Shown piece after piece: positions 1 to 54,860 of a stretch of DNA of 64,000 nt. Origin of the DNA: a bacterium (GTDB taxonomy: Bacteria > CLD3 > SB21); contig JABWCP010000001.1 of NCBI GenBank assembly GCA_013360215.1, forward strand, positions 215,144-279,143, written 5' to 3'. The position numbers were made by a program, and so were the translations under genes. The notes below the pieces were generated by a model that was given only the letters and a program-made list of their open reading frames with translations, made no database searches and had not been told where the DNA came from. How positions within the stretch are numbered: the first letter of the stretch is position 1; every line of letters starts with the position of its first letter.

Positions 1-541
<541 letters not shown>

Positions 542-1747
542 TTAATGAGCATTGATTGATGAAAAAACGGATCGCGCCGACGCGGGCGTTGCAGGCGTAT
601 TGTGTTGACACTGACGCAAAGCCGACGCCAAGTCTTCAATCAAATCGGATGTTTCTTCGATACCGACCGATAAGCGTACAATCCGGTCATTGATACCGGC
701 TTTTTCCCGCAACTCGGCATCCATCGAAGCATGAGACATTGTGGCCGGATGTTCGATCAGGGATTCTACGCCGCCGAGGGACTCCGCCAACGTAAACAAT
801 TTGGTACCTTTGAGAAGCCGGCGCATAGACTCCGAGTCCCCGTCCAGTTCAAATGAAACCATTCCGCCAAAACCGTATTGCTGACATCGAGCCAAGGCAT
901 GATTTGGATGTGACGGAAGTCCGGGGTAAAAAACCCGCCGTACCTGGGGATGTTCGGAGAGAAATCGCGCTACCGCCAGCGCATTGCGCTCATGCGCTTG
1001 CATGCGCGCCACAAGAGTTTTGATTCCGCGCAGTACAAGCCAGCAATCAAAAGGCGCCGCACCCAAACCCAATGCGTTGACAAGAAATTTGAGACGCTCG
1101 GCCAAATTTGAGTCCTTGACAACCACGGCACCGCCGACTACATCGCTGTGACCGTTGAGATATTTAGTCGTCGAATGCACGATGATATCGGCTCCCAATT
1201 CAAATGGCCGCTGGAAATACGGTGAGAGAAATGTGTTATCTACAATGGATAAACCTCTTCGTGCACGCGCTATAGCCGTAATCGCTCGGATGTCCACGAT
1301 ATTGAGCAACGGATTGCTTGGCGTTTCGATCCATATTCCGCGCGTTTCAGGCAACCATGCAGCTTCTACCGATTTCAGATCACACATGTCTACATACGTA
1401 ACACGCAGACCAAACAATTCACTGTACGTCCTCAGTAATCTTTCTGTGCCGCCGTAACAATCATGTGTACACAAAATATGATCGCCGCTTTTGAAAAAAT
1501 GCAGCGCCGTCGCGACGGCCGCCATTCCTGTAGCTACGGCACGCGCGCATATCCCACCTTCAAGCGCGGCTATATTTTCTTCCAAAGCCGAGCGCGTCGG
1601 ATTGCCCGAACGCGTATAATCATATCCTTTAGTAAGTCCCGTCTCTTCAAATCGAAATGTCGAAGACGTATAGATCGGTGTGGTGACGCTGTTGTAGGCC
1701 GTATCTTTGTTGACGCCGGCATGGATCGCAGAAGTTCCGAATTTCAT
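542..1747 (-). CDS. metB: Cystathionine gamma-synthase/lyase (PLP-dependent, Cys/Met metabolism)
   Basis: Motifs YDYTRSGNPTR, IETPSNP, VDNTF, HSTTKYLNGHSD and AESLGGVESL. Confidence 0.88.
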   Translation of the reverse strand: MKFGTSAIHAGVNKDTAYNSVTTPIYTSSTFRFEETGLTKGYDYTRSGNPTRSALEENIAALEGGICARAVATGMAAVATALHFFKSGDHILCTHDCYGGTERLLRTYSELFGLRVTYVDMCDLKSVEAAWLPETRGIWIETPSNPLLNIVDIRAITAIARARRGLSIVDNTFLSPYFQRPFELGADIIVHSTTKYLNGHSDVVGGAVVVKDSNLAERLKFLVNALGLGAAPFDCWLVLRGIKTLVARMQAHERNALAVARFLSEHPQVRRVFYPGLPSHPNHALARCQQYGFGGMVSFELDGDSESMRRLLKGTKLFTLAESLGGVESLIEHPATMSHASMDAELREKAGINDRIVRLSVGIEETSDLIEDLASALRQCQHNTPATPASARSVFSSINAH

Positions 1748-1764: not shown

Positions 1765-1803
1765 AAAAAAAATAAGCCTCTCCCGGGAGATTGGAAGAGG
1801 CCT
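1765..1803 (-). terminator. Intrinsic terminator of the SAM-I expression platform
   Basis: Minus strand reads GGCCUCUUCC-aaucucc-cGGGAGAGGCU followed by a U-run, just upstream of metB. Confidence 0.8.
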
Positions 1804-1811
1804 AGGCTTCT

Positions 1812-1947
1812 TCTCTCATCTTTCCCGAAACCAATACCGTTCGGTATCGGCGGGCAGGATGCGGCACCGGGCATGCACAGGACGTCACTATGCATCGGTT
1901 GCCAAGGCTTCACAGGGCCTGATCCCTCAGCCTTTCGCGATAAGAGT
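1812..1947 (-). ncRNA. SAM-I (S-box) riboswitch aptamer
   Basis: Minus strand reads CUCUUAUC gcgaaaggcugAGGGAucaGGCCCugUGAAGCCuuGGCAACC...GGUGCC...AAAGAUGAGAG. P1, kink-turn P2, P3 and P4 are recognisable, and it lies upstream of met genes. Confidence 0.95.
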
Positions 1948-1992
1948 GTATGTCGTTGGTTGTTTAAGTCATTTTATTCTTTGTTTGAGTGT

Positions 1993-2028
1993 AAAACAAA
2001 AAGCCCTTCCGTTTTATCGGAAGGGCTT
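1993..2028 (-). terminator. Attenuator terminator downstream of the Met/Cys leader ORF
   Basis: Perfect 11-bp stem AAGCCCTTCCG (2001-2011) / CGGAAGGGCTT (2018-2028), followed on the minus strand by UUUGUUUU. Confidence 0.88.
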
Positions 2029-2053
2029 GAAGTAAAAATATTCTACTTATTTG

Positions 2054-2155
2054 CTATAAATGGATATAGCCCTTCCGCGTACAGGTGCACATGCACATCT
2101 GCATCATCGTGGGCATTATATTCTGAGCTGTTTTTGTGTTGCTAAATAAAATCAT
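2054..2155 (-). CDS. Putative Met/Cys-rich attenuator leader peptide, MILFSNTKTAQNIMPTMMQMCMCTCTRKGYIHL (33 aa)
   Basis: Manual translation shows 5 internal Met and 3 Cys codons clustered in codons 14-25. An antiterminator segment at 2068-2077 is complementary to the terminator 5' arm. Confidence 0.8.
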   Translation of the reverse strand: MILFSNTKTAQNIMPTMMQMCMCTCTRKGYIHL

Positions 2156-2163
2156 AATGAAAT

Positions 2164-2193
2164 AATATATACGCCGCACCCCACCCTTGTCAA
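2164..2193 (-). promoter_or_regulatory. Sigma70-type promoter for the leader-metB-metY transcript
   Basis: TTGACA (2193-2188), 18 nt spacer, TATATT (2169-2164). Predicted start falls within a few nt of the leader ATG. Confidence 0.65.
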
Positions 2194-2240: not shown

Positions 2241-3293
2241 TTATTCCAATAAACCTTTAGCGTGAAGCAATTCGGCATTGAGTACCGCTCCTCCGGCCGC
2301 ACCACGAACCGTATTATGAACCAAACAAGAAAACTTGAGGTTGCCTGAACGGTCGTATCGAATACGGCCGACCGACGCAGCCATTGATTTTTCCAAAGTA
2401 ACATCACGGCGCGGTTGCGGACGGTCATCGCCTTCGATGACGACGATAGGTCTTATCGGCGCGAGCGGTAAATTCAGTTCCTGCGGCGCACTTTTAAATT
2501 CAGACAACTTTTGTTTGATATCGCCGATTGCAGGCTGCTGTTTTAATTTCGCTGTAACACTCGCCAAGTGCCCGTCCAATACGGGAACTCGGTGTACGGA
2601 GGCGCTGATCGCAATCGAAGCGAACTGAATGCGATCCTGTAACATTTGTCCCCAAATTTTTAAAGGTTCGGTTTCAATTTTTTCTTCTTCACCGGAAATA
2701 TACGGAATCACATTTCCTAAAATATCCATCGAAGGCACGCCCGGATAACCGGCGCCGGAAATCGCTTGCAGTGTGGTCACATCTACCGATACGACACCGT
2801 AATGCTGATGCAATACATGCACAATAGGAACAAACCCCATGATCGCACAGTTGGAATTGGTTACAATATACCCTCGATCAAAACCGCGATTCTTTTTCTG
2901 AATTTCTATTAACCGCGTGTGATCTGCATTGACCTCCGGAAAAAGCAAAGGTACATCTTCATCCATCCGGTAATTTTTGGCATTACTTACGACAACATAA
3001 CCGGCGCGGGCCAACTCCATTTCGATCGCGCCGGCAACTGAAGAATCCAATGCCGAAAACATCACACGCGCATCCATTCCCGGAGAACATGGCTGCACGA
3101 TCATTTCCCCGATACGCGAAGGCAAAACACTGTCCAGTTTCCATGTATTGAGATCGTTGTATTTTTTCCCGACGGATCGTTCCGAAGCCGCCAATGCAGT
3201 AATTTCAAAATATGGATGGGCGTGAAGCAATTCGATGAAACGCTGACCCACCGTGCCTGTCGCTCCCAAAATTCCTACTTTTATTTTTTTCAC
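2241..3293 (-). CDS. asd: Aspartate-semialdehyde dehydrogenase (archaeal/peptidoglycan-lacking type)
   Basis: Motifs GILGATGTVGQRF, SNAKNYRM, NSNC, QAISGAG and RVPVLDGH; GTG start with AGGAG RBS. Confidence 0.95.
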   Translation of the reverse strand: MKKIKVGILGATGTVGQRFIELLHAHPYFEITALAASERSVGKKYNDLNTWKLDSVLPSRIGEMIVQPCSPGMDARVMFSALDSSVAGAIEMELARAGYVVVSNAKNYRMDEDVPLLFPEVNADHTRLIEIQKKNRGFDRGYIVTNSNCAIMGFVPIVHVLHQHYGVVSVDVTTLQAISGAGYPGVPSMDILGNVIPYISGEEEKIETEPLKIWGQMLQDRIQFASIAISASVHRVPVLDGHLASVTAKLKQQPAIGDIKQKLSEFKSAPQELNLPLAPIRPIVVIEGDDRPQPRRDVTLEKSMAASVGRIRYDRSGNLKFSCLVHNTVRGAAGGAVLNAELLHAKGLLE

Positions 3294-6755: not shown

Positions 6756-8000
6756 CTATACTTCGGCCACCGGTTCCATCGCAACCGGCGCCTCGTCCAA
6801 TTTCAGATCACGGCTTTTGAGAATAAAAGCCATGACCGCGGCAACGGCCATCAGCACAAAAGCAAAATAATACGGTGATTTATGTCCGGCATAGTCATAC
6901 GCCGCACCGCCGATGAACGGACCGATCATCCGTCCTAAACTGGCAAAACTCTGTGCAATACCAAGAATCGAGCCTTGCTCTGACACATCGGCCAAACGCG
7001 ATGTAAGACCCATCGTCGTCGGCGCTAAACACGAACTGCCCATCGAGATCAACGCGGTCGAAATTATAAGTAAAACAATACCACCGATTGGCAAATATGC
7101 CGACAAAGGAAAAGTAATAAAACCGATCGCCATAGCGATAGCTCCAAAACTGATCAAACGCTGTTCACCAAAGCGGTGATTCAGTCTGCCGATCAAACCG
7201 CCTTGAATGATTACACTCACGATTCCGATTTCTACAAAAAACCATCCCATCGCCGAACTCGTCAGACGAAATGGCTCTTCCATAATAAACAGAGGGAACG
7301 TCGCATAGATACTGGAAAAAGCAATCGTCACAATAAAAAAGAAAATCATCAGTAAGCCCAGGTTTTCTTTTTTTATGGCGCGCTGTAAACCGCGCACATC
7401 TATAAGATGATGCGCTTTTATTTCATCCTGCTTGGTTTGTGCCAGAGATTCCGGCAGCATAAAATAAGCCATGAAAAAATTGATCAACGACAACCCCACT
7501 GCGATCCAACCGGGAATCGCAAAACGATACGCTCCAAACGCTTCGCCGGAAAAAACACCGCCGATTAACGGCCCAAAGACAAATCCAAGACCAAATGCCG
7601 CGCCGATCAATCCCATACCTTTGGCGCGTTCCTTGGCCGAAGTGACATCGCTGATATAAGCTTGTGCCACGGAAATATTCGCGTTACCGATCCCGGACAT
7701 GATACGTGCCAAAAAAAGCAACCACAGTGCGAACGCATTGGCAAAAATGATATATCCGATAACTGAACAAAATATCGTCACCAATAAAACCGGCCTTCTC
7801 CCGTAACGATCCGAAATACGTCCCCATAAAGGCATAAATAAAAATGACATGAGTGAAAAAACACTCAATAACAAACCGATCGTCGTGCCCGATGCGTCAA
7901 ACTGCTGCGCATAAAACGGTAATAACGGTATTACAATACCAAAACTTACCAGATCAATAAATACCGTAATAAAAATAACCGTAAGCGGAGAACGCTTCAT
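6756..8000 (-). CDS. MFS transporter (TetA/DHA1-like)
   Basis: 12-TM pattern with motif A GRISDRYGRRP and GLGFVFGPLIGG. Confidence 0.9.
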   Translation of the reverse strand: MKRSPLTVIFITVFIDLVSFGIVIPLLPFYAQQFDASGTTIGLLLSVFSLMSFLFMPLWGRISDRYGRRPVLLVTIFCSVIGYIIFANAFALWLLFLARIMSGIGNANISVAQAYISDVTSAKERAKGMGLIGAAFGLGFVFGPLIGGVFSGEAFGAYRFAIPGWIAVGLSLINFFMAYFMLPESLAQTKQDEIKAHHLIDVRGLQRAIKKENLGLLMIFFFIVTIAFSSIYATFPLFIMEEPFRLTSSAMGWFFVEIGIVSVIIQGGLIGRLNHRFGEQRLISFGAIAMAIGFITFPLSAYLPIGGIVLLIISTALISMGSSCLAPTTMGLTSRLADVSEQGSILGIAQSFASLGRMIGPFIGGAAYDYAGHKSPYYFAFVLMAVAAVMAFILKSRDLKLDEAPVAMEPVAEV

Positions 8001-17872: not shown

Positions 17873-18253
17873 ATGAACTACCAACGTTTTATTTCTCTGT
17901 TTTTTTTCGCAATGTTATTTTTGAACTTAAGTGCTTGCCAAACCAATACTCAAACTCCGTCAAATGAGTATGTAACGGAAGTGGCTGTTATTAAAATCAA
18001 ACCGGAGTTTGTGTCGCGTATGCCGGATATTGTCGCTGAAGCCAAATCCATTATCGGCACGTACGAAGGATTTATATCATGGGAAAACATGCGTGCTGAC
18101 GACACGTCGCGTGTTTTTGTAGATATTTTACGATGGAAAACCAAAAAACATGCCGATCAGGCCTTTGTAAAATTTCATTCCACCGAATCGTGCTCTCGTT
18201 TAATGAACGCTCTCGAAAAAGATGTCTATTTCGGTCATGTTCGCCACTATTAA
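17873..18253 (+). CDS. Lipoprotein with ABM-like (dimeric alpha/beta barrel) domain
   Basis: Lipobox LSAC and pattern GFIS...FVDILRW. Confidence 0.6.
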   Translation: MNYQRFISLFFFAMLFLNLSACQTNTQTPSNEYVTEVAVIKIKPEFVSRMPDIVAEAKSIIGTYEGFISWENMRADDTSRVFVDILRWKTKKHADQAFVKFHSTESCSRLMNALEKDVYFGHVRHY

Positions 18254-18292
18254 TTTACGCTTTTTGCATTAAACACTAATTTGAAATTAACT

Positions 18293-18823
18293 ATGAATAT
18301 CACTGCACACTTACATAAATTCGAATCCATCGCAAACGATTGGATGGCGGCTTTGGACACGTATGATGAACGAAATTTCAATCGTAAACCGGACCAAGAA
18401 AGTTGGTCCATTGGGCAGGTGTATTACCACCTCGTACACGGCACACAAAATTTTCATCTCCGCATGGTGCGGCAATGTATGGATAACCCGGCCCATGCTC
18501 ATGAGAAAAAAACCTTTCCGGGAAAAATTGTGTTTTTCATGGGCCGCTTTCCCCCGATACGCATCAAAGTACCCCCTTCCGACATGTACACACCCAAACA
18601 GCCGGAATCCATTGCCGCCATACGCCGCGATTTGAATACTTTGATCGGAACCATGCCAACGATTGCTAACGAACTATCACAGAAACAACATCAGGGCAAG
18701 GCACAACACCCCCGATTCGGATATTTGAGCGGCGACGAATGGTTTGCCATGATCCAAATGCATTTTCGACATCACTTGTATCAAAAAAATCGTCTTGATA
18801 GTTTCTTACAGAAAGGAGCATAA
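18293..18823 (+). CDS. DinB family protein
   Basis: Motifs WSIGQVYYHL, HPRFG and HFRHHLYQ. Confidence 0.88.
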   Translation: MNITAHLHKFESIANDWMAALDTYDERNFNRKPDQESWSIGQVYYHLVHGTQNFHLRMVRQCMDNPAHAHEKKTFPGKIVFFMGRFPPIRIKVPPSDMYTPKQPESIAAIRRDLNTLIGTMPTIANELSQKQHQGKAQHPRFGYLSGDEWFAMIQMHFRHHLYQKNRLDSFLQKGA

Positions 18824-18825
18824 CG

Positions 18826-19203
18826 ATGAATACCAAAATATTGGGATTGTGCTCTGTAATACATCACGTCACGGATCTGGAAACGGCCAAACGTTGGTAT
18901 GCCGATGCGTTTGGTGTAAAGCCCTATTTCGATCAACCTTTTTATGTCGGATTTCAATTCGGCGGATTCGAACTTGGTCTTGATCCGGATCCTAAACAAT
19001 ACAATTCACCTGGATTCGGCAGTATTACCTATTGGCGCACCGACAATGTGCAAGCTATGTTTGATCATCTTATCCGGTCAGGCGCTCAAGCCAACGAGCA
19101 TCCAAACTGTGTTGGCGGCGATCTTATCATCGCATCGGTGCGCGATCCGTTTGGTAATGTGATCGGATTGATGTACAATCCTGAATTCAAAATAACGGAA
19201 TGA
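18826..19203 (+). CDS. VOC/glyoxalase (bleomycin-resistance-like) protein
   Basis: Motifs KPYFDQPFYVGF, ELGLDP and DPFGNVIGL. Confidence 0.88.
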   Translation: MNTKILGLCSVIHHVTDLETAKRWYADAFGVKPYFDQPFYVGFQFGGFELGLDPDPKQYNSPGFGSITYWRTDNVQAMFDHLIRSGAQANEHPNCVGGDLIIASVRDPFGNVIGLMYNPEFKITE

Positions 19204-19206
19204 CCT

Positions 19207-20310
19207 ATGGCAGAACCATTAAAAAATATGTTTTCCAGATCGTTTGTCGAAACTTTAGGCGATCAGGTTCAAACCGTTTATTCGAGTTTTGACAAACGGG
19301 CATTTACGAATTTTATTTTTGATCACGCATGGTCTCAGCGCGAACTCAAAGATCGAATGCATCATATTTCCTCCGGTCTCAGATCTCATTTACCTGAGGA
19401 TTACCGAAAGGCGCTCGGTATTCTCATTCATGTGACGAAACGTTTTCGTATGAATAATACCAATGTATCGTTTACGGATATGGTGTTTCCGGATTTCGTA
19501 GAACACTTCGGACTTGACGATTTGGAGTCATCCATACCGGCATTGGAATTATTCACCCAAGTTTCAAGCGCTGAATTCGCCATCAGGCCTTTTATTCTTC
19601 GTTATCCGGACATCATGTTACAGCAAATGCTCGTTTGGAGTCGGCACAGTAGTCCGCATGTACGCCGATTGGCCAGCGAAGGTTGCCGTCCGCGACTGCC
19701 ATGGGCTATCGCATTACCTGTGTTTCAAAAAGACCCGGCTCCGATTCTGCCGATTTTAGAAAATCTTAAGGCTGATCCTTCAGAATATGTTCGCCGAAGC
19801 GTGGCGAATAACCTGAACGACATAACCAAGGATAATCCGGAAATCGTACTGCAGATCGCAGAACGCTGGCGAGGTTTGTCTACGGAAACAGACAAATTGG
19901 TCAAACACGCCTGTCGCACGCTTTTGAAACGCGGGAACAAAAAAGCGCTCTCAATTTTTGGAACGCATGATGCCTCCGGCGTTTCAGTGCTTTCATTTGT
20001 ATCCAAGAAGAAAAAAATATTTATCGGTGATACGTTGGATTTTGAAGCGGAAATTCGGATCCGGAAAGTCAAAACACTTCGCATCGAATACGCGATTGAT
20101 TTTGTCAAATCCGGAGGAAAAATCAGCCGCAAAGTCTTCAAATGGCGTGAAGGTCCTTATGATAACGGTTCTTTGAAGTTGAACAAAAGGCATCGTTTTC
20201 AAAATTTTACGACGCGCAAGCATTATCCAGGAAAACATGCAATTACTTTGATCATCAATGGTCATCCCATAGCAGACTTGCACATAACGCTTGGCGACCG
20301 CCATGACTAA
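19207..20310 (+). CDS. alkC: DNA alkylation repair glycosylase (AlkC-like HEAT repeat with C-terminal Ig-like domain)
   Basis: Motifs SSAEFAIRPF, RRLASEGCRPRLPW, YVRRSVANNLND and TTRKHYPG. Confidence 0.85.
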   Translation: MAEPLKNMFSRSFVETLGDQVQTVYSSFDKRAFTNFIFDHAWSQRELKDRMHHISSGLRSHLPEDYRKALGILIHVTKRFRMNNTNVSFTDMVFPDFVEHFGLDDLESSIPALELFTQVSSAEFAIRPFILRYPDIMLQQMLVWSRHSSPHVRRLASEGCRPRLPWAIALPVFQKDPAPILPILENLKADPSEYVRRSVANNLNDITKDNPEIVLQIAERWRGLSTETDKLVKHACRTLLKRGNKKALSIFGTHDASGVSVLSFVSKKKKIFIGDTLDFEAEIRIRKVKTLRIEYAIDFVKSGGKISRKVFKWREGPYDNGSLKLNKRHRFQNFTTRKHYPGKHAITLIINGHPIADLHITLGDRHD

Positions 20311-20842
20311 AAGTGAATTAATAAAAATGCTTACCGGTAACGATCGCCGAACCATCGCTAACGCGAATTTGCTAGTAAGTAAGCTGGCTCACGATAGAAC
20401 GGCGCTTAAAAATTTATACCATCTTTTATCGCACGAAGATGCGGATATTTGTTTCCGCGCTTCCGATGCGTTAGAAAAAATCCTACGAAACGAAACCACC
20501 GCTACACGTACTCTATCACCACACCTGGCTAAAGACTGGGTAACGCTGATTAGCAACGAGGCTTTACAGATGCATCTGCCTCTGATTTTGGGTTACGTCG
20601 CATGGAAAAAAAACGATGCCGCTCGAATCAGTACGAATTTGCTTGAACTCGCGCACACCACTAAAAATAAATTTGTTGCCGTTAATGCGATGACCGGCTT
20701 AGCCGATATCGCATTACGGCATACGTGGTTATTACCTACGGTTTGGGGATTATTGGATGAAATGGAAACGAAAGGCAGTGCGGCGCTTCGTGCAAGAGCA
20801 CGTATCCTAAAAAAGAAAATCAATCTTACAACTAAGCTATAA
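20303..20842 (+). CDS. HEAT-repeat-like hypothetical protein
   Basis: Coupled to the upstream gene; motifs GNDRRTI, RASDALEK and ALRARAR. Confidence 0.65.
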   Translation: MTKSELIKMLTGNDRRTIANANLLVSKLAHDRTALKNLYHLLSHEDADICFRASDALEKILRNETTATRTLSPHLAKDWVTLISNEALQMHLPLILGYVAWKKNDAARISTNLLELAHTTKNKFVAVNAMTGLADIALRHTWLLPTVWGLLDEMETKGSAALRARARILKKKINLTTKL

Positions 20843-21337
20843 ATTCTTTGGCCAAGTGGTATGTTTCATAAAAATATCAACGAATTCCTCCAGACCGGCC
20901 CGATCCGTTTCGTCAAAACGAGCCATCTGAGGGCTATCCAAATCCAGAACTCCGAATAACTGTTCTCCCGAAATCAGAGGGATCACAATTTCAGAATTCG
21001 AAGCACTGTCGCACGCGATATGCCCCGGGAAAGCATGCACATCCTTCACTACAACAGTTTTTCTCTGTTGAGCGGCCGTACCACATACCCCCTTGCCCAT
21101 AGCGATGTGAACACAAGCAGGTTTACCTTGAAAAGGGCCTACCACCAATTCACCGCCTTTATAAAAATAAAAACCGGCCCAATTAAGTGCTGGCAACGTA
21201 TAATATAATAAAGAAGAAGCGTTGGCTGCGTTGGCAATGAGATCGTTTTCACCTTCAAGCAAATGATGAATCTGGGTATGCAATGCAGCATACATTTCGG
21301 ACTTGGTGCTATATTCGGTGGAGTGCGTCTCAAACAT
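20837..21337 (-). CDS. msrC: Free methionine-R-sulfoxide reductase (GAF domain)
   Basis: Motifs NWAGFY, GPFQGKPAC, GKGVCG and HIACDSASNSEIV. Confidence 0.92.
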   Translation of the reverse strand: MFETHSTEYSTKSEMYAALHTQIHHLLEGENDLIANAANASSLLYYTLPALNWAGFYFYKGGELVVGPFQGKPACVHIAMGKGVCGTAAQQRKTVVVKDVHAFPGHIACDSASNSEIVIPLISGEQLFGVLDLDSPQMARFDETDRAGLEEFVDIFMKHTTWPKNL

Positions 21338-21570
21338 ATAATTTGACCCTATATCAAAAGTTCAGTTCAATATAATACTTTTATCTTTAAGCTAACGTAA
21401 AGTACATTTTTCATTTCAAAAAACAACTTGATTTTCTATTCAAAATCATTACAATTACGTCTAAGAAAGGCCGATATTAAATCTCATATCGTTGATCGTA
21501 TAACATCCCTCAAAAAAGATGCGCATCGCGATGTGACTTATTTTTTTAGTACAAATTAAAAAATATTTAC

Positions 21571-22194
21571 ATGAGCAAGAAACCTATTACCAACAAAGAC
21601 GTAACGCCGCGAATGTTTGAAAGTGATTTTTTGGAGTTTTTTTCCAAAGTACACTTTAGCGTTCCGTTGATCGTATTTATTCCTGTAATTTCTTATTTCA
21701 TCTATCAGAGTTTATGGATTGAAAAGTCAGATCTAAAACACTTTTTGTTTTGGATTTTAGCCGGACTCGCCGTTTGGACTCTGACGGAATATGTTTTGCA
21801 CCGTTTTGTTTTTCATTTCACGCCGCGTGGCGCTCTGATGGAACGCATACATTTCATTTTTCACGGTGTGCACCACGATTATCCCAATGATTCTAAACGC
21901 CTTGTCATGCCCCCGGCAGCGAGCATTCCGTTAGCTGCATTATTCTATTTTTTATTTTTAATTATATTTGGATCAAATATCGCTCCCATGTTTTCTGGTT
22001 TTTTGATCGGGTATTTGTGGTATGATATGACGCATTATGCCATACATCATTTCAACATGCACTCGGCGTTTTGGTTAGCTATAAAAAATCATCACATGAA
22101 GCATCATTTTCAGAATCCGGAAAAAGGGTTCGGAGTCAGTACGCCCATTTGGGATTACGTATGGCAAACTATGTTTCCTGTTAAAAATAAATAA
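21571..22194 (+). CDS. Fatty acid hydroxylase (FA2H-like)
   Basis: His boxes HRFVFH, HGVHH, HYAIHH and HHMKHH, plus RLVMPP. Confidence 0.9.
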   Translation: MSKKPITNKDVTPRMFESDFLEFFSKVHFSVPLIVFIPVISYFIYQSLWIEKSDLKHFLFWILAGLAVWTLTEYVLHRFVFHFTPRGALMERIHFIFHGVHHDYPNDSKRLVMPPAASIPLAALFYFLFLIIFGSNIAPMFSGFLIGYLWYDMTHYAIHHFNMHSAFWLAIKNHHMKHHFQNPEKGFGVSTPIWDYVWQTMFPVKNK

Positions 22195-22227
22195 AAATAT
22201 TTTAAGTAGTCTGAGTAATTTTGGGAA

Positions 22228-23247
22228 GTGGTCTATATGATTATTAGACGATGCGAATCCGGTAAGCCCCGTAAGTGTTTTGATCCAATTATTATTATAA
22301 TAATGGTTGGACTGTTTTCAAACAATGCCCCGTCATCCGCTCAAGACCGGTATGATCCTGAATTAAATCGTAAGCCATATATACCAAACGTCACAAAAAA
22401 CGCTGACGCAAGCAGTAAAGACACTATTAATTCTGAACACAGACCACAGCAAAAAATTAAATCCAACCTTATCGATTACAAGCAAAAGAAAATTCATTTT
22501 TTCTTAACTTATGGACGTTCGCTAATGCGCGATTATGAACAAACTATCAAGTATATACGCGCATCCGGATATCCATACGTATTAGCCGAAATATCTGACC
22601 CTGATGAAAAGAAAGTTAAACCTCAAATTTTCCAAATCGGGGTACAATACAACATTAACGACCGTTTTATAGTTGAATTTTCCAACACGCGAATTCTAGC
22701 TCAGAAAATTTCAGGAAGCAATTGGGTTGCCGGTATAAATGAATCCGTACCGGGAATAGGTGATTTACTTTTTGATATTGTTCAAGCTTCCAAAACATCA
22801 ATTCTACAACCGGGCGTTAGATATATTTTGATGCCATTAAATATAGAAAGTCGACTTGAAATTACTACCGGCTTGGGGTTGTCTTATGCAAGCTACCATT
22901 TGACATCAACAAATTATTATAAACAGAATTACGGTACTTATCGCGTACCGGTAATAATTAATGCAAAAAAAGAATCCAGTAAATTTGATCGAAACGCTTT
23001 CGGAATGTATTGCGATTTAGGTATGGAGTTTTATTGGTCAAAATTGATAAGTACGCAATTTAAAATTGAACAGCGTTATGCTCAAACAATAAATATACCA
23101 GAACAACAATTCAGCTACATTGTTAGAAAAAAGGACAACCTTTCAGGATCATATATTGAAGAAACTCAAACACGGTTTTTTAAAAAACAAAAAATTGATC
23201 ACTCCGGCTTTATATTAAGTTCAACACTTCGTATACATTTGTTCTGA
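22228..23247 (+). CDS. Hypothetical exported/outer-membrane beta-barrel-like protein
   Basis: Long AT-rich ORF with alternating beta pattern and C-terminal Phe; start uncertain. Confidence 0.55.
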   Translation: MVYMIIRRCESGKPRKCFDPIIIIIMVGLFSNNAPSSAQDRYDPELNRKPYIPNVTKNADASSKDTINSEHRPQQKIKSNLIDYKQKKIHFFLTYGRSLMRDYEQTIKYIRASGYPYVLAEISDPDEKKVKPQIFQIGVQYNINDRFIVEFSNTRILAQKISGSNWVAGINESVPGIGDLLFDIVQASKTSILQPGVRYILMPLNIESRLEITTGLGLSYASYHLTSTNYYKQNYGTYRVPVIINAKKESSKFDRNAFGMYCDLGMEFYWSKLISTQFKIEQRYAQTINIPEQQFSYIVRKKDNLSGSYIEETQTRFFKKQKIDHSGFILSSTLRIHLF

Positions 23248-49763: not shown

Positions 49764-50564
49764 TTAGTAGGACATTGAGATACTCAATCCAATTACTTTT
49801 CCCATACCATTTGAAATTTCTTCATCCATTGGAATTTTTAAAAATAGCCCCGGTCGTATCCGATCATGTTTCAAATAAGCCGAAACTTCAACGGTGCTAA
49901 GATGCCGATCTGAAATATTACCATCTTCAGTAAAGATAACTACACCTTCGTAACCCATGGATGCCCCGAATTTTTCCAAATCCAATCCGCAGTACACTCC
50001 ATAATTCGCCCATAAATCTGTCGGATCTTCAACTTCACTATCAGTAAAATGTGACACCGAAGTACCCAATCGAAACCCCATATACGATCCTTTATCCATA
50101 ATTTTATGACGTTGAACCATTATTGAACCTGTAATAACGTCTGCACCGTAGGCATACATTCGCTCATAGTCTGCAGAACCACCAATAAGATTAGCTAGAA
50201 ACTTGTCGTCACTCGCTGTAGGTAGCCTGAGACCTATATCCGTAAACCATTCATCATTGTTGTTCATTCGAAATCCGAGGTAGATATTAGACAAAGCAAA
50301 TTCATCTTCTTTAAAACCATTTCGTTCATATGAAAAATTACAGAATGGCACTTCAATTCGAACGGCACTTCCGGAGGCCAAAGTCGTCTGAAATGTTATG
50401 TCGTATAATCCTGTTATTGCATTGTAACCTTTTGAATCAAAATCGGGGTGATAAAAATCAATTGAAAATTTACCACGAGTTGTCGGATTCATCCAATCCA
50501 TTTGTGCGTGGGTGATATGTACCACACCTAAAATTAACAATAATAGGAACATTGTTTTTTTCAT
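49764..50564 (-). CDS. Hypothetical outer-membrane beta-barrel protein
   Basis: Signal peptide, SNIYLG...GLRLPTA and a C-terminal aromatic residue. Confidence 0.65.
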   Translation of the reverse strand: MKKTMFLLLLILGVVHITHAQMDWMNPTTRGKFSIDFYHPDFDSKGYNAITGLYDITFQTTLASGSAVRIEVPFCNFSYERNGFKEDEFALSNIYLGFRMNNNDEWFTDIGLRLPTASDDKFLANLIGGSADYERMYAYGADVITGSIMVQRHKIMDKGSYMGFRLGTSVSHFTDSEVEDPTDLWANYGVYCGLDLEKFGASMGYEGVVIFTEDGNISDRHLSTVEVSAYLKHDRIRPGLFLKIPMDEEISNGMGKVIGLSISMSY

Positions 50565-50650
50565 ACGTTCTCCCTTGAATGATTTTTTAAAAAATAGAGA
50601 CGACTTCTACAAACTTATAATATCCCAATCACACATTGCTTAAAGATTAT

Positions 50651-51334
50651 TCATCGTCCCGGCTTAGATATTGTCCCTTCAATGGATACATTAACAACAG
50701 ACGAATCCGTAGTTGCTGGGCCACTAATCCGCGCCCATGCTTGCACGGTAATCCTTTTGGATCCGTTCAAACCAGTAACATCCCAATCAAATGTGGTATT
50801 GTTAGTCAACGTCTTGCGGGAAAGCCGTTTGTTGTCAATATAACAAACCATACTATCAACCGACGACGCGGCAACATTTGTAACCTTAGCTTTTATTGAA
50901 TAAATACCTGCGCTAGCAGAGATAAATGCCGCATCCGTAGGTTGTGTGATTTCTACTATGGGTGTACCGATATTGGTGACTTTAATCGTGATATTTTTAC
51001 TGGTACTTTTGTTAGATTCATTGATAACTTTACTCTTTATTACGTAATCACCCGGTAAAAAAGGCGCCCTATAAGTTACTGTTGATCCATTAATAGCGCC
51101 CTCAAATGATCCCCCATTGTTGGTACTGATGGTCCAAACATAGTCCAACTGTTCATCGTTCAAATCGCGTGCTGAAACGGTTATGTTTGTTGTATCATTT
51201 ACAAGTATGGTATTTCTTGCAGCCGTGATGCCATCAATAACCGGAGCATCGGCACTAACGCTGTCCCCTATGGGTTGACATGCAGCAAAACAAAAAACAG
51301 TGATTGTTGATAAAAGTATTAAATTAAAGCGCAT
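50651..51334 (-). CDS. Lipoprotein with two Ig-like domains
   Basis: Lipobox FAAC; motifs SARDLNDEQLDYVW, PIVEITQP and FDWD. Confidence 0.72.
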   Translation of the reverse strand: MRFNLILLSTITVFCFAACQPIGDSVSADAPVIDGITAARNTILVNDTTNITVSARDLNDEQLDYVWTISTNNGGSFEGAINGSTVTYRAPFLPGDYVIKSKVINESNKSTSKNITIKVTNIGTPIVEITQPTDAAFISASAGIYSIKAKVTNVAASSVDSMVCYIDNKRLSRKTLTNNTTFDWDVTGLNGSKRITVQAWARISGPATTDSSVVNVSIEGTISKPGR

Positions 51335-51342
51335 TTTTCCTC

Positions 51343-52134
51343 CTAAAACGCCCGCGCGGCTTGAAGAATACGGCCGTTTAACGCAGACTTAATAATAACA
51401 ACCACACCGATTTGCGATTGCACATAGCTAGATTTGAGATTGATCGGATCAGTCGTAAATTCATAAATTGTCTTAGCCGGTATGAGTGGTAACGTCTCCG
51501 ATGGTCGCACTTCGCGAACGGTATAATGCCCGCTTGGCATGCCTTTGTCCTCATAGACGATATACTCGATTTTGGCATTAGTAAGATCTTCATCGCCGTA
51601 GCGTGCGATCTGTATGTCTAACGTCAATTGGGATGCCTCTATTTTTTTTGTCGCCGTGACATACAGCTTTTCTTTATTGGAAACTAGAGAATCTAAAACC
51701 GTTTGGTACCGTTGTTTGGCAACACTTAATGACGAAGCGCCCTGCACAGCAACAGATTTCCCATTAAAAAATGTATGCGGAAATCCGCGCGAAGCCGACC
51801 CTTTGTACTCATTGGCGTATCGCAATTCATTATCCGATATGGCTAGCGAATCCTCAAATCCGCCTGAATTGGGAGTCATGTGATACTCCAGTGTAATCAA
51901 ATTATTATCGTAGCGTTCTTCCAATTCGTATAATGCATTTAGAGAATACGTATTGAATTCAGGAGCCGTGACATTCACATTGGTATTGATAATGACAAAA
52001 TTTTCGACTACGGCTATTTGATCCGCGGCCGCATTGGGATTTTTAGGATCTAGCGTGTTGTCATGTTTTAAATCACAACCGGCGTTGCTGGCAATGATCA
52101 CTAAAATAAAAAAATATGTTTGAATTAATTTCAT
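51343..52134 (-). CDS. Omp28-related lipoprotein
   Basis: Lipobox NAGC; motifs AVVENF, LEYH, GFPHTFFNG, VYED, HYTVR and ILQA. Confidence 0.65.
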   Translation of the reverse strand: MKLIQTYFFILVIIASNAGCDLKHDNTLDPKNPNAAADQIAVVENFVIINTNVNVTAPEFNTYSLNALYELEERYDNNLITLEYHMTPNSGGFEDSLAISDNELRYANEYKGSASRGFPHTFFNGKSVAVQGASSLSVAKQRYQTVLDSLVSNKEKLYVTATKKIEASQLTLDIQIARYGDEDLTNAKIEYIVYEDKGMPSGHYTVREVRPSETLPLIPAKTIYEFTTDPINLKSSYVQSQIGVVVIIKSALNGRILQAARAF

Positions 52135-52139
52135 AATTT

Positions 52140-53000
52140 TCAAAATGAGAATGAAAGGTTTAGCCCTGACGTTTTAGAATCAATATACGGTGCGACAGCA
52201 AAATTACTTATTTCAGGTAAATCCATATCCGCCAAAACTTCACGATCGGAAGAAGCGTTTTTTATAAATGCATAAACTAAACCGATCGCTGTAGCTGCGG
52301 TGCCGACCTGAAGCGAAATCGTCGCTTTATTCCAACGATCTGCTTTTTTATAGCGTGCATTCATTTTTGCAAGATCGGTAGTACCGCGATACGCCGCACG
52401 CAAATCAGAAGTTTTTTGCGCTGCTAAATAGGCTCCGCCGCCAAGGACTAACGTGGCAATGGCGAATTCTTTGACCGGTGCTCCACCCAACTTCATAGAC
52501 GGTATTTTTTTGCCTTCGCCGGATAATTCGTAAGCTATATTATTAGCTAATAACCGCGCCATCGTATTCACATTCTTGCGTGATGGCCCTGTGACCTTCT
52601 CAGCGATAACCTGACCGCTGGAAATACGCGTAACGGCTACGTCAATACGTAAGCGACCTTCCGCCTCAGAAACTTCACCGGTGATCACATAGTCCGCTCC
52701 GATCAAATTCCCGACCTTCGCTTGTTTATCCTTATCTTCGGACAGATCACTTAAAACAAAATCCTGTTCTTTCAATACCGCATCCAGCTTTTCACGTTCG
52801 ACGATGACAACGGAGCGCGTTTGTGCAAGTTCCGTTTTGAGTAAGGTGGGGAAGGATTTTGCTACTTCGTCTAAATAAAATTTCTCTGAAGTGTTGTGAA
52901 AACTTAGAATAGCAGCTACCGGTTTTTCCTGTGAAAAAATCGGAACCACGGCAACAAACAGCAACCATAAACCACTAAAAATACAACGTATAAAGATCAT
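52140..53000 (-). CDS. CsgG/FlgO/TolB-N-like exported protein
   Basis: Motif IVEREKLDAVLKEQ...KVGNLIGADYVITG; C-terminal GLNLSFSF. Confidence 0.72.
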   Translation of the reverse strand: MIFIRCIFSGLWLLFVAVVPIFSQEKPVAAILSFHNTSEKFYLDEVAKSFPTLLKTELAQTRSVVIVEREKLDAVLKEQDFVLSDLSEDKDKQAKVGNLIGADYVITGEVSEAEGRLRIDVAVTRISSGQVIAEKVTGPSRKNVNTMARLLANNIAYELSGEGKKIPSMKLGGAPVKEFAIATLVLGGGAYLAAQKTSDLRAAYRGTTDLAKMNARYKKADRWNKATISLQVGTAATAIGLVYAFIKNASSDREVLADMDLPEISNFAVAPYIDSKTSGLNLSFSF

Positions 53001-53058
53001 GAGTACCCCTATTTCTGAATATCGTTCATTCAAGAAACGACGTATAGGTAAACGAATT

Positions 53059-53916
53059 TTAACCAAAAAGTTTCAAAGCATTTTCACGAACTATTTTTAG
53101 TTTGGCGGTTTCATCGAGCGGTAAAGAAAGAAATTCATCGGCGTTTTTACGCATATCATCTACCTGCGGGCCCGGCCAATCCGTACCAAAATATACCTTA
53201 TCCGCTATTTCCTCAAGACGGGGAAAATAATCCGTCAGTATTTTTTTGGGAGGAATGGAGGAAATATCAATCGACACATTTTTATGACGGCGCACAAGAT
53301 AAAAAGCCGTCTCCATCCATAGCGGCCTCCCGCCGTGCGCCATGATGATTTTGAGATTGGGAAAATCTACCGCTACATCATCCACATGAATCGGATCACC
53401 GTACTTGATACGCGCTCCCGCAAAAAAAGACGTACCGGTATGTATCATCACCGGTATTCCCCACTCTTCACAGCGACGGTAAATAATTTCCAAGTTTTTC
53501 ATGCCGTTCAAATAATCATTTGGATAATAGAGCTGATGCGGCGGATGCACCTTGATGGCGCGAATGCCGAGATCGTGAATCAATCGGTGTATATCCGCTT
53601 CGGCATCTTTGGTGAATCGAGGATGTACAGATCCATAGGCGATAAACCGATCCGGAGCATATTTTTGATACGCCGACGAAAAATCATTGGATGAATCGTC
53701 AAAACCCATCAGATCAGGGCTTACATAGTTGATCAAACCTACTTTTTCTATATCGGCCTTATCCATCAACGCGATCAACTTGGCCGGGTTTTTCATAATA
53801 TCCAGAAGTTGATCGTAGTTCTCTTTCCCGTGGGCCATACGCGTGCGTATCTCCGGCTTCAATTGCCACCACGGCTGGATATGAATGTGAATATCTATAA
53901 TCTTGATGCGAGACAT
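53059..53916 (-). CDS. Amidohydrolase_2 family metallohydrolase
   Basis: Motifs IDIHIH, KVHP, IHTG, AHGG and FGTDWP. Confidence 0.9.
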   Translation of the reverse strand: MSRIKIIDIHIHIQPWWQLKPEIRTRMAHGKENYDQLLDIMKNPAKLIALMDKADIEKVGLINYVSPDLMGFDDSSNDFSSAYQKYAPDRFIAYGSVHPRFTKDAEADIHRLIHDLGIRAIKVHPPHQLYYPNDYLNGMKNLEIIYRRCEEWGIPVMIHTGTSFFAGARIKYGDPIHVDDVAVDFPNLKIIMAHGGRPLWMETAFYLVRRHKNVSIDISSIPPKKILTDYFPRLEEIADKVYFGTDWPGPQVDDMRKNADEFLSLPLDETAKLKIVRENALKLFG

Positions 53917-53918
53917 GA

Positions 53919-54209
53919 TTACGCCTGAAAACCAAATGGATTTTTAGGTTCGCTGGCTTCTTCGATTTTACCGAATTGTTCTTCGTAGTGGCGCATATTT
54001 TGTGCAAGGGCCGCGATGACACGTTTGACATGACCGGGGCTCATAACGATTCGGGCATTAACTACACCTGTCGGAGGCGTTACCAGCATAAAATCGAGTA
54101 TAAATTCTTCTTTGGAGTGCGCTACGACCATATTATTGGCATACGTTCCGGATTGTTTTTCAGGGGGAAAGTGAATTTGGATTTCCTGCATTTTCTTTTC
54201 TTCAGCCAT
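53919..54209 (-). CDS. DUF3467 protein
   Basis: Motif GTYAN...HSKEEFILDF...ARIVMSPGHVKR...YEEQFGKI. Confidence 0.85.
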   Translation of the reverse strand: MAEEKKMQEIQIHFPPEKQSGTYANNMVVAHSKEEFILDFMLVTPPTGVVNARIVMSPGHVKRVIAALAQNMRHYEEQFGKIEEASEPKNPFGFQA

Positions 54210-54257
54210 AAACTCCTCTGAGGTTATTCTTAACGCTATCAGTTAAATAATAAAAAT

Positions 54258-54860
54258 TTACTTTTCACACAATCGCTTTAGTTCAGACAAATTACGATCA
54301 TTGATTTGATAAGCTCCATTTTTTGATAACCACGCTTTGACGCCGCCCCAGAACCCTTGGACCGTTCGCTGCTCTGTCATAGTCAGCGTTGTCATACCTT
54401 CGCCGGTTGGGAATAACGTAACAGATTGGGCCAAACCATGAAAAGGACCGCCTTCAACACGTAGTGAAAACGCATGCGGTGGATTAGTTTCGGTAATCCT
54501 ACACACCATTTTAAGTTGATTGACCCCTTTGTCAACGAGCGCAGAACCGCCTTGTGCAATATATTGCCGCACTGTATCAAGCCGCACACCCGCACCCACA
54601 ACGCCGTTTCCGGATGGCAATTGCAATAACAATTGCATCAATTGATCCCCGTCTATTTTTTCCAGCGACAATTGAGCCGCTTGTGCCAGAGCGTGCCAAG
54701 CCGGCAAATCCATCGCTCTTTCATATACGACCGGCGGAGCCGCTTTGATCATTATTGTTGTTTCAGCGGTATAATGCTTCGGAAGAAAAAAAGCGGCTAT
54801 GACCGCCACGCCTAACATTGCTAAAGAAAAATATATCAGACGAAATAATAATCGTATCAT
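54258..54860 (-). CDS. SRPBCC-like membrane-anchored protein
   Basis: N-terminal TM, LPKHYTAETTIMIKA.P..VY and C-terminal LSELKRLCE. Confidence 0.6.
   Translation of the reverse strand: MIRLLFRLIYFSLAMLGVAVIAAFFLPKHYTAETTIMIKAAPPVVYERAMDLPAWHALAQAAQLSLEKIDGDQLMQLLLQLPSGNGVVGAGVRLDTVRQYIAQGGSALVDKGVNQLKMVCRITETNPPHAFSLRVEGGPFHGLAQSVTLFPTGEGMTTLTMTEQRTVQGFWGGVKAWLSKNGAYQINDRNLSELKRLCEK

Follow-up and report, generated by a model that had tools for sequence, protein, structure and literature searches.

A stretch of 64,000 nucleotides (nt) of contig JABWCP010000001.1 (positions 215,144 to 279,143 of the forward strand; assembly GCA_013360215.1), hereafter called the window, carries a long 5' leader in front of a metB-like and a metY-like gene, in which two putative regulatory elements follow each other. 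The reading that we favor, to which we give slightly better than even chances, is that a sensor of sulfur amino acids, namely a transcription attenuator of the ribosome-mediated, leader-peptide type, is placed here in series with a SAM-I off-riboswitch (SAM, S-adenosylmethionine) within the metB-metY 5' leader. The order of the elements along the minus strand is asd, promoter P1, a leader open reading frame (ORF), terminator 1, the SAM-I aptamer, terminator 2, the metB-like gene and the metY-like gene. Their positions are listed in Table 1, and all coordinates refer to the minus strand of the window unless marked otherwise. The region had been singled out before from its letters alone (the sequence-only reading), with the description of a TTGACA/TATATT promoter, a 33-codon ORF with five Met and three Cys in its codons 14-25, a perfect 11-bp terminator, an exact complement of the 5' arm of this terminator inside the ORF, a SAM-I aptamer with its own terminator, and metB and metY behind them. 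All these elements were found in the present analysis at the places where they had been described, with the identity of metB supported at the family level.

Leader ORF, terminator and riboswitch upstream of metB-metY

The leader ORF is located between P1 and the riboswitch, and represents the 3' part of a longer listed frame of 57 amino acids (aa), named here ORF57. With 8 of its 12 codons encoding Met or Cys, the regulatory cluster of this ORF ranks first among the 78,980 stop-free 12-codon windows found in the six frames of the 64 kb, the highest value outside of the leader ORF being 5/12. The three Cys codons are not adjacent to each other, but placed among the five Met codons. Between the -10 box of P1 and the ATG there are 8 nt, a distance compatible with a leaderless start; from this spacing, the P1 transcription start is predicted around 2158-2155, with a 5' untranslated region (UTR) of 0-3 nt. 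P1 itself is the sole promoter with at least 5/6 matches to TTGACA in the 300 nt that precede the aptamer. A promoter scan of 1 kb returned 2 promoter-like sites versus 1.5 ± 1.4 expected, in such a way that the match of P1 is good but does not constitute a proof.

When ORF57 was used in a protein search, a single match was obtained (P0001), which is 96% identical, differs in 2 of the 57 residues and keeps the Met/Cys part unchanged. P0001 is present on 6 contigs, in which the gene callers took the longer in-frame 57-aa version (2054-2227 in the window) as the protein. This 57-aa call is probably a mis-annotation, as its first 24 residues overlap the promoter. A protein family of such leader peptides was not found among 5.8 billion and 1.84 billion predicted proteins.

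For comparison with relatives, a MetB-based scan with one genome per species was carried out, which gave 272 relatives, from which the best 80 loci were kept. The top MetB identity was only 73% (locus L001), in metagenome-assembled genomes (MAGs) labelled Ignavibacteriota, Bacteroidota or KSB1.

Terminator 1 has a 6-nt loop, and its stem lies directly 5' of UUUGUUUU. The sequence CGGAAGGGCU, which occupies codons 27-30 of the leader ORF (segment 2), is an exact copy of the terminator 3' arm, and hence it complements the terminator 5' arm. This 10-mer occurs three times in the 64 kb, all of them here (the two terminator arms and 2077-2068). The motif count over the whole window is by itself unremarkable, with 3 occurrences at up to 1 mismatch where 2.17 are expected on average, a count of 3 being reached in 38 of 100 shuffles. 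By contrast with this global count, when the 160 nt upstream were shuffled 20,000 times with their dinucleotides preserved, a 10-nt copy of the 3' arm never appeared, and a 9-nt copy was present in only 12 shuffles. Moreover, among the 114 terminator-like hairpins of the window and the 80 loci, an upstream copy of at least 8 nt was detected at a single one, terminator 1. The leader ORF runs through segment 2 and its stop codon is found 12 nt beyond, and the 5' 80 nt of the leader are A/U-rich, with little structure.

The alternative structures were folded in transcripts ending at 2016, before the terminator 3' arm, with a 30-nt ribosome footprint masked. With the A-site of the ribosome at Met14, Met17, Met18, Met20, Cys21 or Met22, positions 2077-2068 pair with 2027-2018 (7 segment 2:3 pairs), whereas only 4 of these pairs are formed with the A-site at Cys23, and none with it at Cys25. 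The antiterminator and the terminator are near-equal in energy (Table 1). The region 2116-2068 reaches -18.3 kcal/mol when folded alone, and the 1:2 hairpin is not preferred once segment 3 exists. Part of the trp/his/thr-type geometry claimed in the sequence-only reading is reproduced by these folds, namely the 2:3 pairing with ribosomes stalled between Met14 and Met22 and its loss at Cys25. The folds differ from the trp scheme in that the antiterminator is preferred without a ribosome. The equivalence of Cys and Met codons in the same claim is not borne out by the footprints, according to which stalls at Cys23 and Cys25 would cover segment 2, not free it.

The upstream half of the leader was also compared with Rfam at E values up to 10, and only sub-threshold matches were obtained (PyrG leader with 24.8 bits for a gathering threshold of 65, Phe leader with 23 for 55, PyrR with 20 for 54, and others). 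No known Rfam family was recognized in this half, all the matches, including those to the His and Phe leader models, being below the gathering threshold.

The second element of the leader, the SAM-I aptamer, is the only Rfam match at the gathering threshold in the 64 kb. In its expression platform, the terminator folds with -21 to -22.6 kcal/mol and the antiterminator with -13.1 to -14.8 kcal/mol, and the alternative helix makes use of 1826-1813, the 3' strand of the aptamer, so it is mutually exclusive with the terminator. Judged from its sequence, the riboswitch half is an ordinary SAM-I member with a standard terminator/antiterminator platform, for which binding of SAM is predicted. The terminators at 2028..2001 and 1804..1773, the only two detected on the minus strand in a scan of 1500-2500, lie on the same strand with no gene in between, supporting the presence of two putative sensors in one 5' leader.

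A Cys-rich leader in a relative and the riboswitch loci of the other relatives

In 754,422 windows of the 80 loci, all the 8 windows with a score of at least 7/12 Met/Cys belong to one ORF, found in a leader of L001. This leader is located 3' of metB and 5' of a gene of the nitrite/sulfite-reductase family (L001:2505-4271; 588 aa, with its best NCBIfam matches below the cut-offs) and of cysH (L001:4372-4956; 157.1 bits for a cut-off of 154). It has a TTGACA-17-TATCTT promoter and an ATG located 12 nt behind the -10 box; a Shine-Dalgarno sequence is missing, and the UTR has around 6 nt. The ORF contains 36 codons, and its codons 13-29 include 8 Cys and 2 Met, with four consecutive Cys codons. 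Folding of the truncated leader (-40.6 kcal/mol) produced a strong 1:2 hairpin, which gives way to a 2:3 antiterminator of 15 bp when the ribosome occupies Cys13, Cys16, Met24 or Met25; this antiterminator is absent when the ribosome is at the stop codon. The L001 leader is, in these models, folded as a textbook 1:2 / 2:3 / 3:4 attenuator, and it has the appearance of a Cys attenuator not described before, in a MAG of the Ignavibacteriota/Bacteroidota type. A PyrR identity for this leader was considered and rejected, as the match scored 29.5 bits (gathering threshold of 54) and its alignment is devoid of the binding loop.

The window and L001 leaders align collinearly with a score of 81.5, versus 25.6 ± 6.3 for shuffled sequences, none of which (0/500) reached it, and versus 12.5-37.5 for 14 unrelated riboswitch-upstream regions. 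The ATG-ATT starts of the two ORFs coincide in the alignment, their stops are within 6 nt of each other, and the two terminators coincide in a core of 9 nt in their arms and in the AAAAC motif of the loop. Beside a common GAAGG/CCUUC core, the window has G/C/G in segments 2/3/4 and L001 has C/G/C, a three-way change through which both the antiterminator and the terminator pairing are kept (one covarying base pair). These similarities suggest that the two leaders are likely homologous. In a scan of the loci for small ORFs with at least 5/10 Met/Cys codons followed by a terminator, the window and L001 were recovered, plus two Cys-rich frames (L006:2984-3091 and L008:3133-3285, both on the minus strand) that were discarded as artefacts, since they are antisense to a conserved part of metB and recur through conservation of the coding strand.

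The riboswitches of the relatives were analyzed by an Rfam search in 20 of the 80 loci (L001-L019 and L024). A SAM-I aptamer was detected before metB in 15 of them; no SAM-I was found in L005 and L013, nor in the Planctomycetes L018 and L019, and L016 is truncated on the upstream side. Ten of the 15 SAM-bearing relatives have a promoter with at least 5/6 matches to TTGACA whose end is 24-44 nt away from the aptamer, and none was found by the same rule in the other 5. By contrast, the only strong promoter of the window ends 217 nt before its aptamer, with the ORF and the terminator in between, and this distance is the only difference with respect to other SAM-I (S-box, RF00162) riboswitches. 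No genuine terminator was found in the 300 nt before the aptamer of any of the 15 relatives; a terminator match at this place in L002 was dismissed because it corresponds to a GC-rich promoter spacer that runs into the -10 box. From the distance of the strong promoter and the lack of the module in the 15 relatives, the ORF-plus-terminator module is, as far as these loci indicate, an addition peculiar to the lineage of the window.

A second candidate promoter, P2, is found between the two elements. Its -35 box has 3/6 consensus matches, and it overlaps the U-tract of terminator 1. P2 may be the degraded original promoter of the riboswitch, whose -35 box would have been replaced by the U-tract that came with the added terminator. 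As P2 occupies the place of the riboswitch promoter in the relatives, it is plausible that some transcripts contain the riboswitch alone, and an AND gate made by the two sensors may leak. The caveat of a weaker promoter at this place had been raised in the sequence-only reading, and it was justified, both for the sequence and for its position.

Some other similarities between promoter regions were observed. P1 and the riboswitch promoter at L002:173-210 have in common the TTGACA-18-TATATT arrangement, a spacer rich in G and the bases that follow the -10 box. The riboswitch-promoter region of L002 gave only E = 3.5 with an nhmmer profile of the two leaders, and P1 may descend either from a riboswitch promoter or from a leader promoter. 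In addition, a box close to GTTCTTTACA recurs, as detected by eye, 10-25 nt before the SAM aptamer in L002 (170-224), L004, L006, L011 and L024. The window has at 1990-1999 the similar sequence TTGTTTTACA, yet located 44 nt before the aptamer.

Table 1. Coordinates of the leader elements, of the related leader and of the neighboring genes.
Feature	Coordinates	Strand	Basis
Promoter P1, TTGACA (2193-2188), 18-nt spacer, TATATT (2169-2164)	2164..2193	-	11/12 consensus matches
Candidate weak promoter P2, TTGTTT-17-TAAAAT	1971..1999	-	8/12 consensus matches, read from sequence, below promoter-scan threshold
Leader ORF, 33 codons, ATG at 2155, TAG at 2056-2054	2054..2155	-	ORF scan; between P1 and riboswitch
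Cluster of regulatory codons (14-25), five AUG (Met) and three Cys codons (UGC, UGC, UGU)	2081..2116	-	Codon count
Segment 1:2 hairpin (weak), Met/Cys codon region and part of the antiterminator strand	2068..2113	-	Full-length minimum-free-energy fold
Segment 2, antiterminator 5' strand, codons 27-30	2068..2077	-	Exact 10-nt copy of terminator 3' arm
Antiterminator (2:3), two small hairpins in loop	2018..2077	-	-19.1 kcal/mol; forms in transcripts ending at 2016
Terminator 1 (3:4), perfect 11-bp stem 2028..2001, 6-nt loop, U-tract 2000-1993	1993..2028	-	Terminator scan; -19.3 kcal/mol
SAM-I (S-box) aptamer	1813..1946	-	RF00162, 67.5 bits (gathering 44.4), E = 1.4e-13, full model 1-108
SAM-I expression platform, terminator 1804..1773, U8 at 1772-1765, alternative helix	1765..1826	-	Terminator scan and folds
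metB-like trans-sulfuration pyridoxal phosphate enzyme, cystathionine gamma-synthase family	542..1747	-	NCBIfam NF005871, TIGR02080
metY-like O-acetylhomoserine sulfhydrylase, truncated by window edge	2..508	-	TIGR01326
asd (aspartate-semialdehyde dehydrogenase), upstream gene	2241..3293	-	NCBIfam NF006416, 461.7 bits (cut-off 232)
L001 leader: promoter, Cys-rich ORF, terminator	L001:2262-2480	+	Met/Cys window scan, folds

Regarding the genes around the leader, the metB-like gene obtained its best NCBIfam score with NF005871 (481.9 bits), below the equivalog cut-off of 513, and 476.4 bits with TIGR02080, also below its cut-off of 504.55, so on these scores it is assignable at the family level only. 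The metY-like gene matched TIGR01326 with 261 bits over 169 aa, at profile positions 1-159 of 418. Both form the only met operon of the window, and no trp, his, leu, thr or ilv operon, sought as further cases of attenuation, was found in the 64 kb. The asd gene has no terminator of its own, the first one 3' of its stop codon being the leader terminator, at a distance of 213 nt; as a consequence, read-through transcripts from asd would enter the attenuator as well. A blastn search with 2240-1947 against the window and the 80 loci did not reveal a second copy, and the 10-mer is confined to the locus, so an origin of the leader from a repeat or a mobile element was rejected within these sequences.

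In other parts of the window, a gene at 6756-8000 (minus strand) encodes a transporter of the major facilitator superfamily (MFS), whose best NCBIfam match is the Tet(A)/(B)/(C) efflux family with 212 bits, far under the cut-off of 475. We annotate it from this score as a generic MFS efflux pump, and not as a called resistance gene. Two runs of genes (17873-23247 and 49764-54860) gave no NCBIfam match at an E value of 1e-10 or better, and both overlap the parts of the window with the lowest GC content (0.397 at 20-24 kb and 0.399 at 48-52 kb).

Proposed mechanism and alternative explanations

What the analysis shows directly is the set of sequence elements with their statistics, the alternative folds and the related leader of one relative, whereas the transcription start, the translation of the ORF, the stalling and the regulatory outcome are inferred. 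In the mechanism that we propose, transcription would start 0-3 nt before the AUG at 2155, and the 33-codon ORF would be translated as a leaderless one, with no Shine-Dalgarno sequence. With plentiful charged elongator tRNA-Met, the ribosome would be over codons 26-33 and hide segment 2 while segments 3 and 4 are being made, in such a way that the 11-bp terminator would form and transcription would stop near 1995. When Met-tRNA is scarce, the ribosome would wait at the AUG codons 14-22, and the free segment 2 would pair with the emerging segment 3, so that no terminator would be formed. Scarcity of Cys-tRNA may act alike at codon 21; the late Cys codons, when stalled, would rather favor termination. 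The polymerase would then enter the SAM-I aptamer, and a second, independent decision would be taken at 1804..1773, with a stop when SAM is bound.

Full induction from P1 would need both a low charging of tRNA-Met and a low SAM concentration, and the weak P2, located 3' of terminator 1, may add a basal level under the control of SAM alone. The two-input gate claimed in the sequence-only reading is plausible for transcripts from P1, in view of two sensors each with its own terminator, but it may leak through the candidate promoter placed between them. Without a ribosome the antiterminator would be favored, and a low initiation during Met starvation would also push towards read-through. The weakness of the 1:2 hairpin and the preference for the antiterminator without a ribosome make read-through the predicted default, with no default termination like that of trp. 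Such a default would suit a methionine sensor, because a shortage of methionine also lowers initiation.

Several observations weigh against this attenuator. Frames as long as the leader ORF were open in 487 of 5,000 shuffles (9.7%), so that its length is weak evidence by itself, and the same applies to the L001 ORF, with 15.2% of the shuffles open as long. There is no Shine-Dalgarno sequence before the leader ATG, and SD-like motifs precede 27 of the 55 window genes versus a background of 9.6%; for this reason, translation hinges on a transcript that starts at the AUG or within around 3 nt of it. Concerning conservation, P0001 is too close to be informative. A phmmer search with the 33-aa peptide against 1.84 billion representatives returned P0001 and one 415-aa low-complexity match only, and a protein search with the L001 peptide gave no match. 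An nhmmer profile of the two leaders revealed no third member with E < 0.5 in the window and the 80 loci. When the alignment between both leaders was analyzed by parts, its score was reached by 1 of 1,000 shuffles for the terminator, 32 for the ORF, 91 for the promoter and 194 for the spacer; the support comes mostly from the terminator, and hairpin arms are not independent and inflate the score, so homology is likely but unproven. The search of relatives for Met/Cys ORFs upstream of met or cys genes, suggested in the sequence-only reading as a check, gave a mixed result, with the L001 leader found before cys genes and no ORF plus terminator between promoter and aptamer in any of the 15 SAM-bearing relatives.

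The folds and P2 add further points of the same sign. When the ribosome is at the stop codon, 6 nt of segment 2 stay outside of its footprint, although it is doubtful that segment 2 pairs across this ribosome. In the transcript ending at 2016 the antiterminator is already preferred over the weak 1:2 hairpin with no ribosome at all, and the full-length folds keep the terminator under every mask, which implies, for these models, that the decision would have to be kinetic. Finally, the distance between the end of the -10 box of P2 and the aptamer is 24 nt, within the range of 24-44 nt found in 10 of the 15 relatives.

This position of P2 is what would be expected if 2028..2001 simply terminated asd, or else a short transcript made upstream, the operon being transcribed from P2 and the ORF and the 10-nt complement having no regulatory role. 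The lack of another terminator for asd, and of an attenuator before the riboswitch in all the 15 SAM-bearing relatives, also fit this scenario, which we nevertheless regard as quite unlikely. The 10-nt complement would arise by chance less than once in 20,000 cases, and the Met/Cys cluster, the first among 78,980 windows, is directly 5' of the only met operon of the window. The strong P1 would serve only to make a dead-end transcript of 160 nt, whereas P2 matches the consensus in 8/12 positions overall and in 3/6 of the -35 box. Moreover, L001 shows the same design before cys genes, with the terminator behind a separate promoter. A different possibility is a real terminator/antiterminator switch set by a protein or a small ligand that acts on the 2113-2070 hairpin or on the antiterminator loop, the Met/Cys codons being a by-product of a UG/CA-rich hairpin. 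It would explain an ORF with no Shine-Dalgarno sequence and hardly any 5' UTR, the location of the Met/Cys codons inside the hairpin and the UCCAU motif that both leaders have in the antiterminator loop, and it could find support in the sub-threshold matches to protein-dependent attenuators (PyrR with 29.5 bits in L001 and 20 in the window, PyrG leader with 24.8 bits). However, the PyrR alignment falls on generic hairpins and misses the conserved binding loop, and the His, Phe and trpB leader models score alike, so that these matches reflect a generic attenuator shape. Also, the 5' 80 nt are A/U-rich and barely structured, unlike an aptamer. Both ORFs keep aligned start and stop codons despite indels, each of them is the most extreme Met/Cys cluster of its set, and their codon content matches the downstream operon in each genome. 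For these reasons we consider such a switch unlikely.

It was also considered that the ORF could encode a functional small Met/Cys-rich peptide (e.g., metal-binding) with its own promoter and terminator, the met operon being merely adjacent. Met/Cys-rich motifs are typical of soft-metal ligands, and the frame is kept in P0001 and L001. However, the window and L001 peptides are alike in little but composition, with 32 of 1,000 DNA shuffles reaching the ORF alignment score, and no such peptide family exists among the 5.8 billion and 1.84 billion predicted proteins. This explanation is made improbable as well by the overlap of the ORF 3' end with the antiterminator strand, by the L001 ORF being buried in a strong hairpin (-40.6 kcal/mol), and by the location of both copies directly 5' of sulfur-metabolism genes on the same strand. 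Very improbable in our opinion is that the leader represents a decaying relic, i.e., an L001-like Cys leader moved before the riboswitch by a rearrangement and with no regulation left. A relic would be expected to lose its perfect terminator stem, its exact 10-nt antiterminator and its 11/12 promoter, and a constitutive terminator behind the only strong promoter would silence metB-metY. Whereas the uniqueness of the arrangement among the relatives examined, a 1:2 hairpin far weaker than that of L001, and the different frame of part of the aligned TG-rich core in the two ORFs could be taken as signs of decay, the codon content has changed from mainly Cys to mainly Met, in keeping with the new operon.

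Comparison with known systems and biological meaning

The classical leader-peptide attenuators of amino-acid operons are those of trp, his, thr, leu and pheA in Proteobacteria. The attenuator proposed here resembles them in its short ORF, its cluster of codons for the product of the pathway, its mutually exclusive terminator and antiterminator, and the position of the antiterminator 5' strand at the end of the ORF. In contrast to them, the codons are for Met and Cys, the start is near-leaderless and lacks a Shine-Dalgarno sequence, and segment 2 is traversed by the ORF, which in the classical cases ends before it. The 1:2 hairpin is weak, with read-through as the default when free of ribosomes, and the host belongs to the Ignavibacteriota/Bacteroidota group.

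Leaders with Cys codons have been described in other bacteria. According to the accessible text of PMC8632094, the uORFC-8-2 motif found before cysS in Rhodobacterales carries Cys codons in a first stem, followed by a second stem and a U-run that form an intrinsic terminator, and stalling at low Cys-tRNA was proposed to produce read-through. The window leader is similar to it, as far as this text describes the motif, in having an upstream ORF with regulatory codons in the first stem and then an intrinsic terminator. The motif differs, within the same text, in having just two tandem Cys codons, in preceding a tRNA synthetase gene, in belonging to alpha-proteobacteria, and in showing neither Met codons nor a riboswitch downstream. 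In mycobacteria, the available part of bioRxiv 10.1101/834739 describes polycysteine leaderless small ORFs (sORFs) as the first cistron of sulfur-metabolism operons, in which stalling at Cys codons acts as the sensor, and several loci may share the signal. In this source the sORFs are experimentally proven, their effect is exerted on translation through a ribosome-binding site that becomes unmasked, and transcription termination is denied by its authors. Leaders with Cys codons were also predicted in Actinobacteria, without terminators according to the text accessible from PMC1262725. The window ORF shares with the mycobacterial sORFs of that preprint a leaderless start (predicted in our case) and a sulfur operon. 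On the basis of the same partial source, the mycobacterial sORFs have no intrinsic terminators, whereas the window ORF is Met-dominant and is followed by a strong intrinsic terminator and by a riboswitch, not by the start of a gene. The run of consecutive Cys codons, given there as a mycobacterial trait, is absent from the window ORF, whereas four are found in L001. By analogy, and as far as they are described there, these leaderless Cys-sensing sORFs are a precedent, but no evidence for the window.

Stacked sensors within a single leader are known in mgtA, with a Mg2+ riboswitch and the Pro-codon ORF mgtL, and in metE, with SAM-I and adenosylcobalamin (AdoCbl) riboswitches in tandem. Tandem attenuators are also present in the Salmonella mgtCBR leader, as described in the accessible text of PMC3641672. 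The window leader, as proposed here, coincides with these three in having two independent sensors for two signals in one transcript, and would differ from them in pairing a charged-tRNA sensor with a metabolite aptamer, each with a terminator in series and with signals that belong to the same pathway. In the open full-text literature, with subscription journals and supplementary files being outside of this scope, we found neither a Met-codon leader nor a tandem of a leader peptide and a SAM riboswitch, in agreement with the sequence-only reading, in which this combination was given as one not known to be described. The accessible main texts of PMC2965389 and PMC4833913, devoted to predicted attenuators and leader genes, contain neither of them, and their supplementary tables might list Met/Cys cases.

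Beyond the individual locus, a wider reading can be put forward tentatively, as possible more than probable. It assumes a family of leaderless sulfur-amino-acid attenuators in Ignavibacteriota-like bacteria, with codons retuned to the operon that they precede, Cys-rich before sulfite reductase and cysH in L001 and Met-rich before metB-metY in the window. The window copy would then be the first natural methionine-codon attenuator, in a gate that reads both charged tRNA-Met and SAM. Owing to the read-through default, fewer initiations with formylmethionine would induce the operon. As the last Cys codons are placed where a stall covers the antiterminator strand, a Cys shortage could shut off MetB, which consumes cysteine.

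On the practical side of annotation, gene callers miss ORFs of this kind or call a longer false frame, as in the case of the 57-aa form in the protein database. If the proposed attenuator is true, a Met-codon attenuator would fill a gap in classic leader-peptide attenuation, and it would raise the question of how a cell reads the charging of elongator tRNA-Met when initiation also needs methionine. Its stacking with SAM-I would show, in addition, how one transcript separates a shortage of methionine for protein synthesis from a shortage of the methyl donor. The Cys-rich leader that precedes sulfate-assimilation genes in L001 points to a small regulon under the control of stalled ribosomes, in a phylum for which such control is undescribed, and the finding also suggests that the regulatory codons of these leaders can be retuned through a few substitutions and frame changes.

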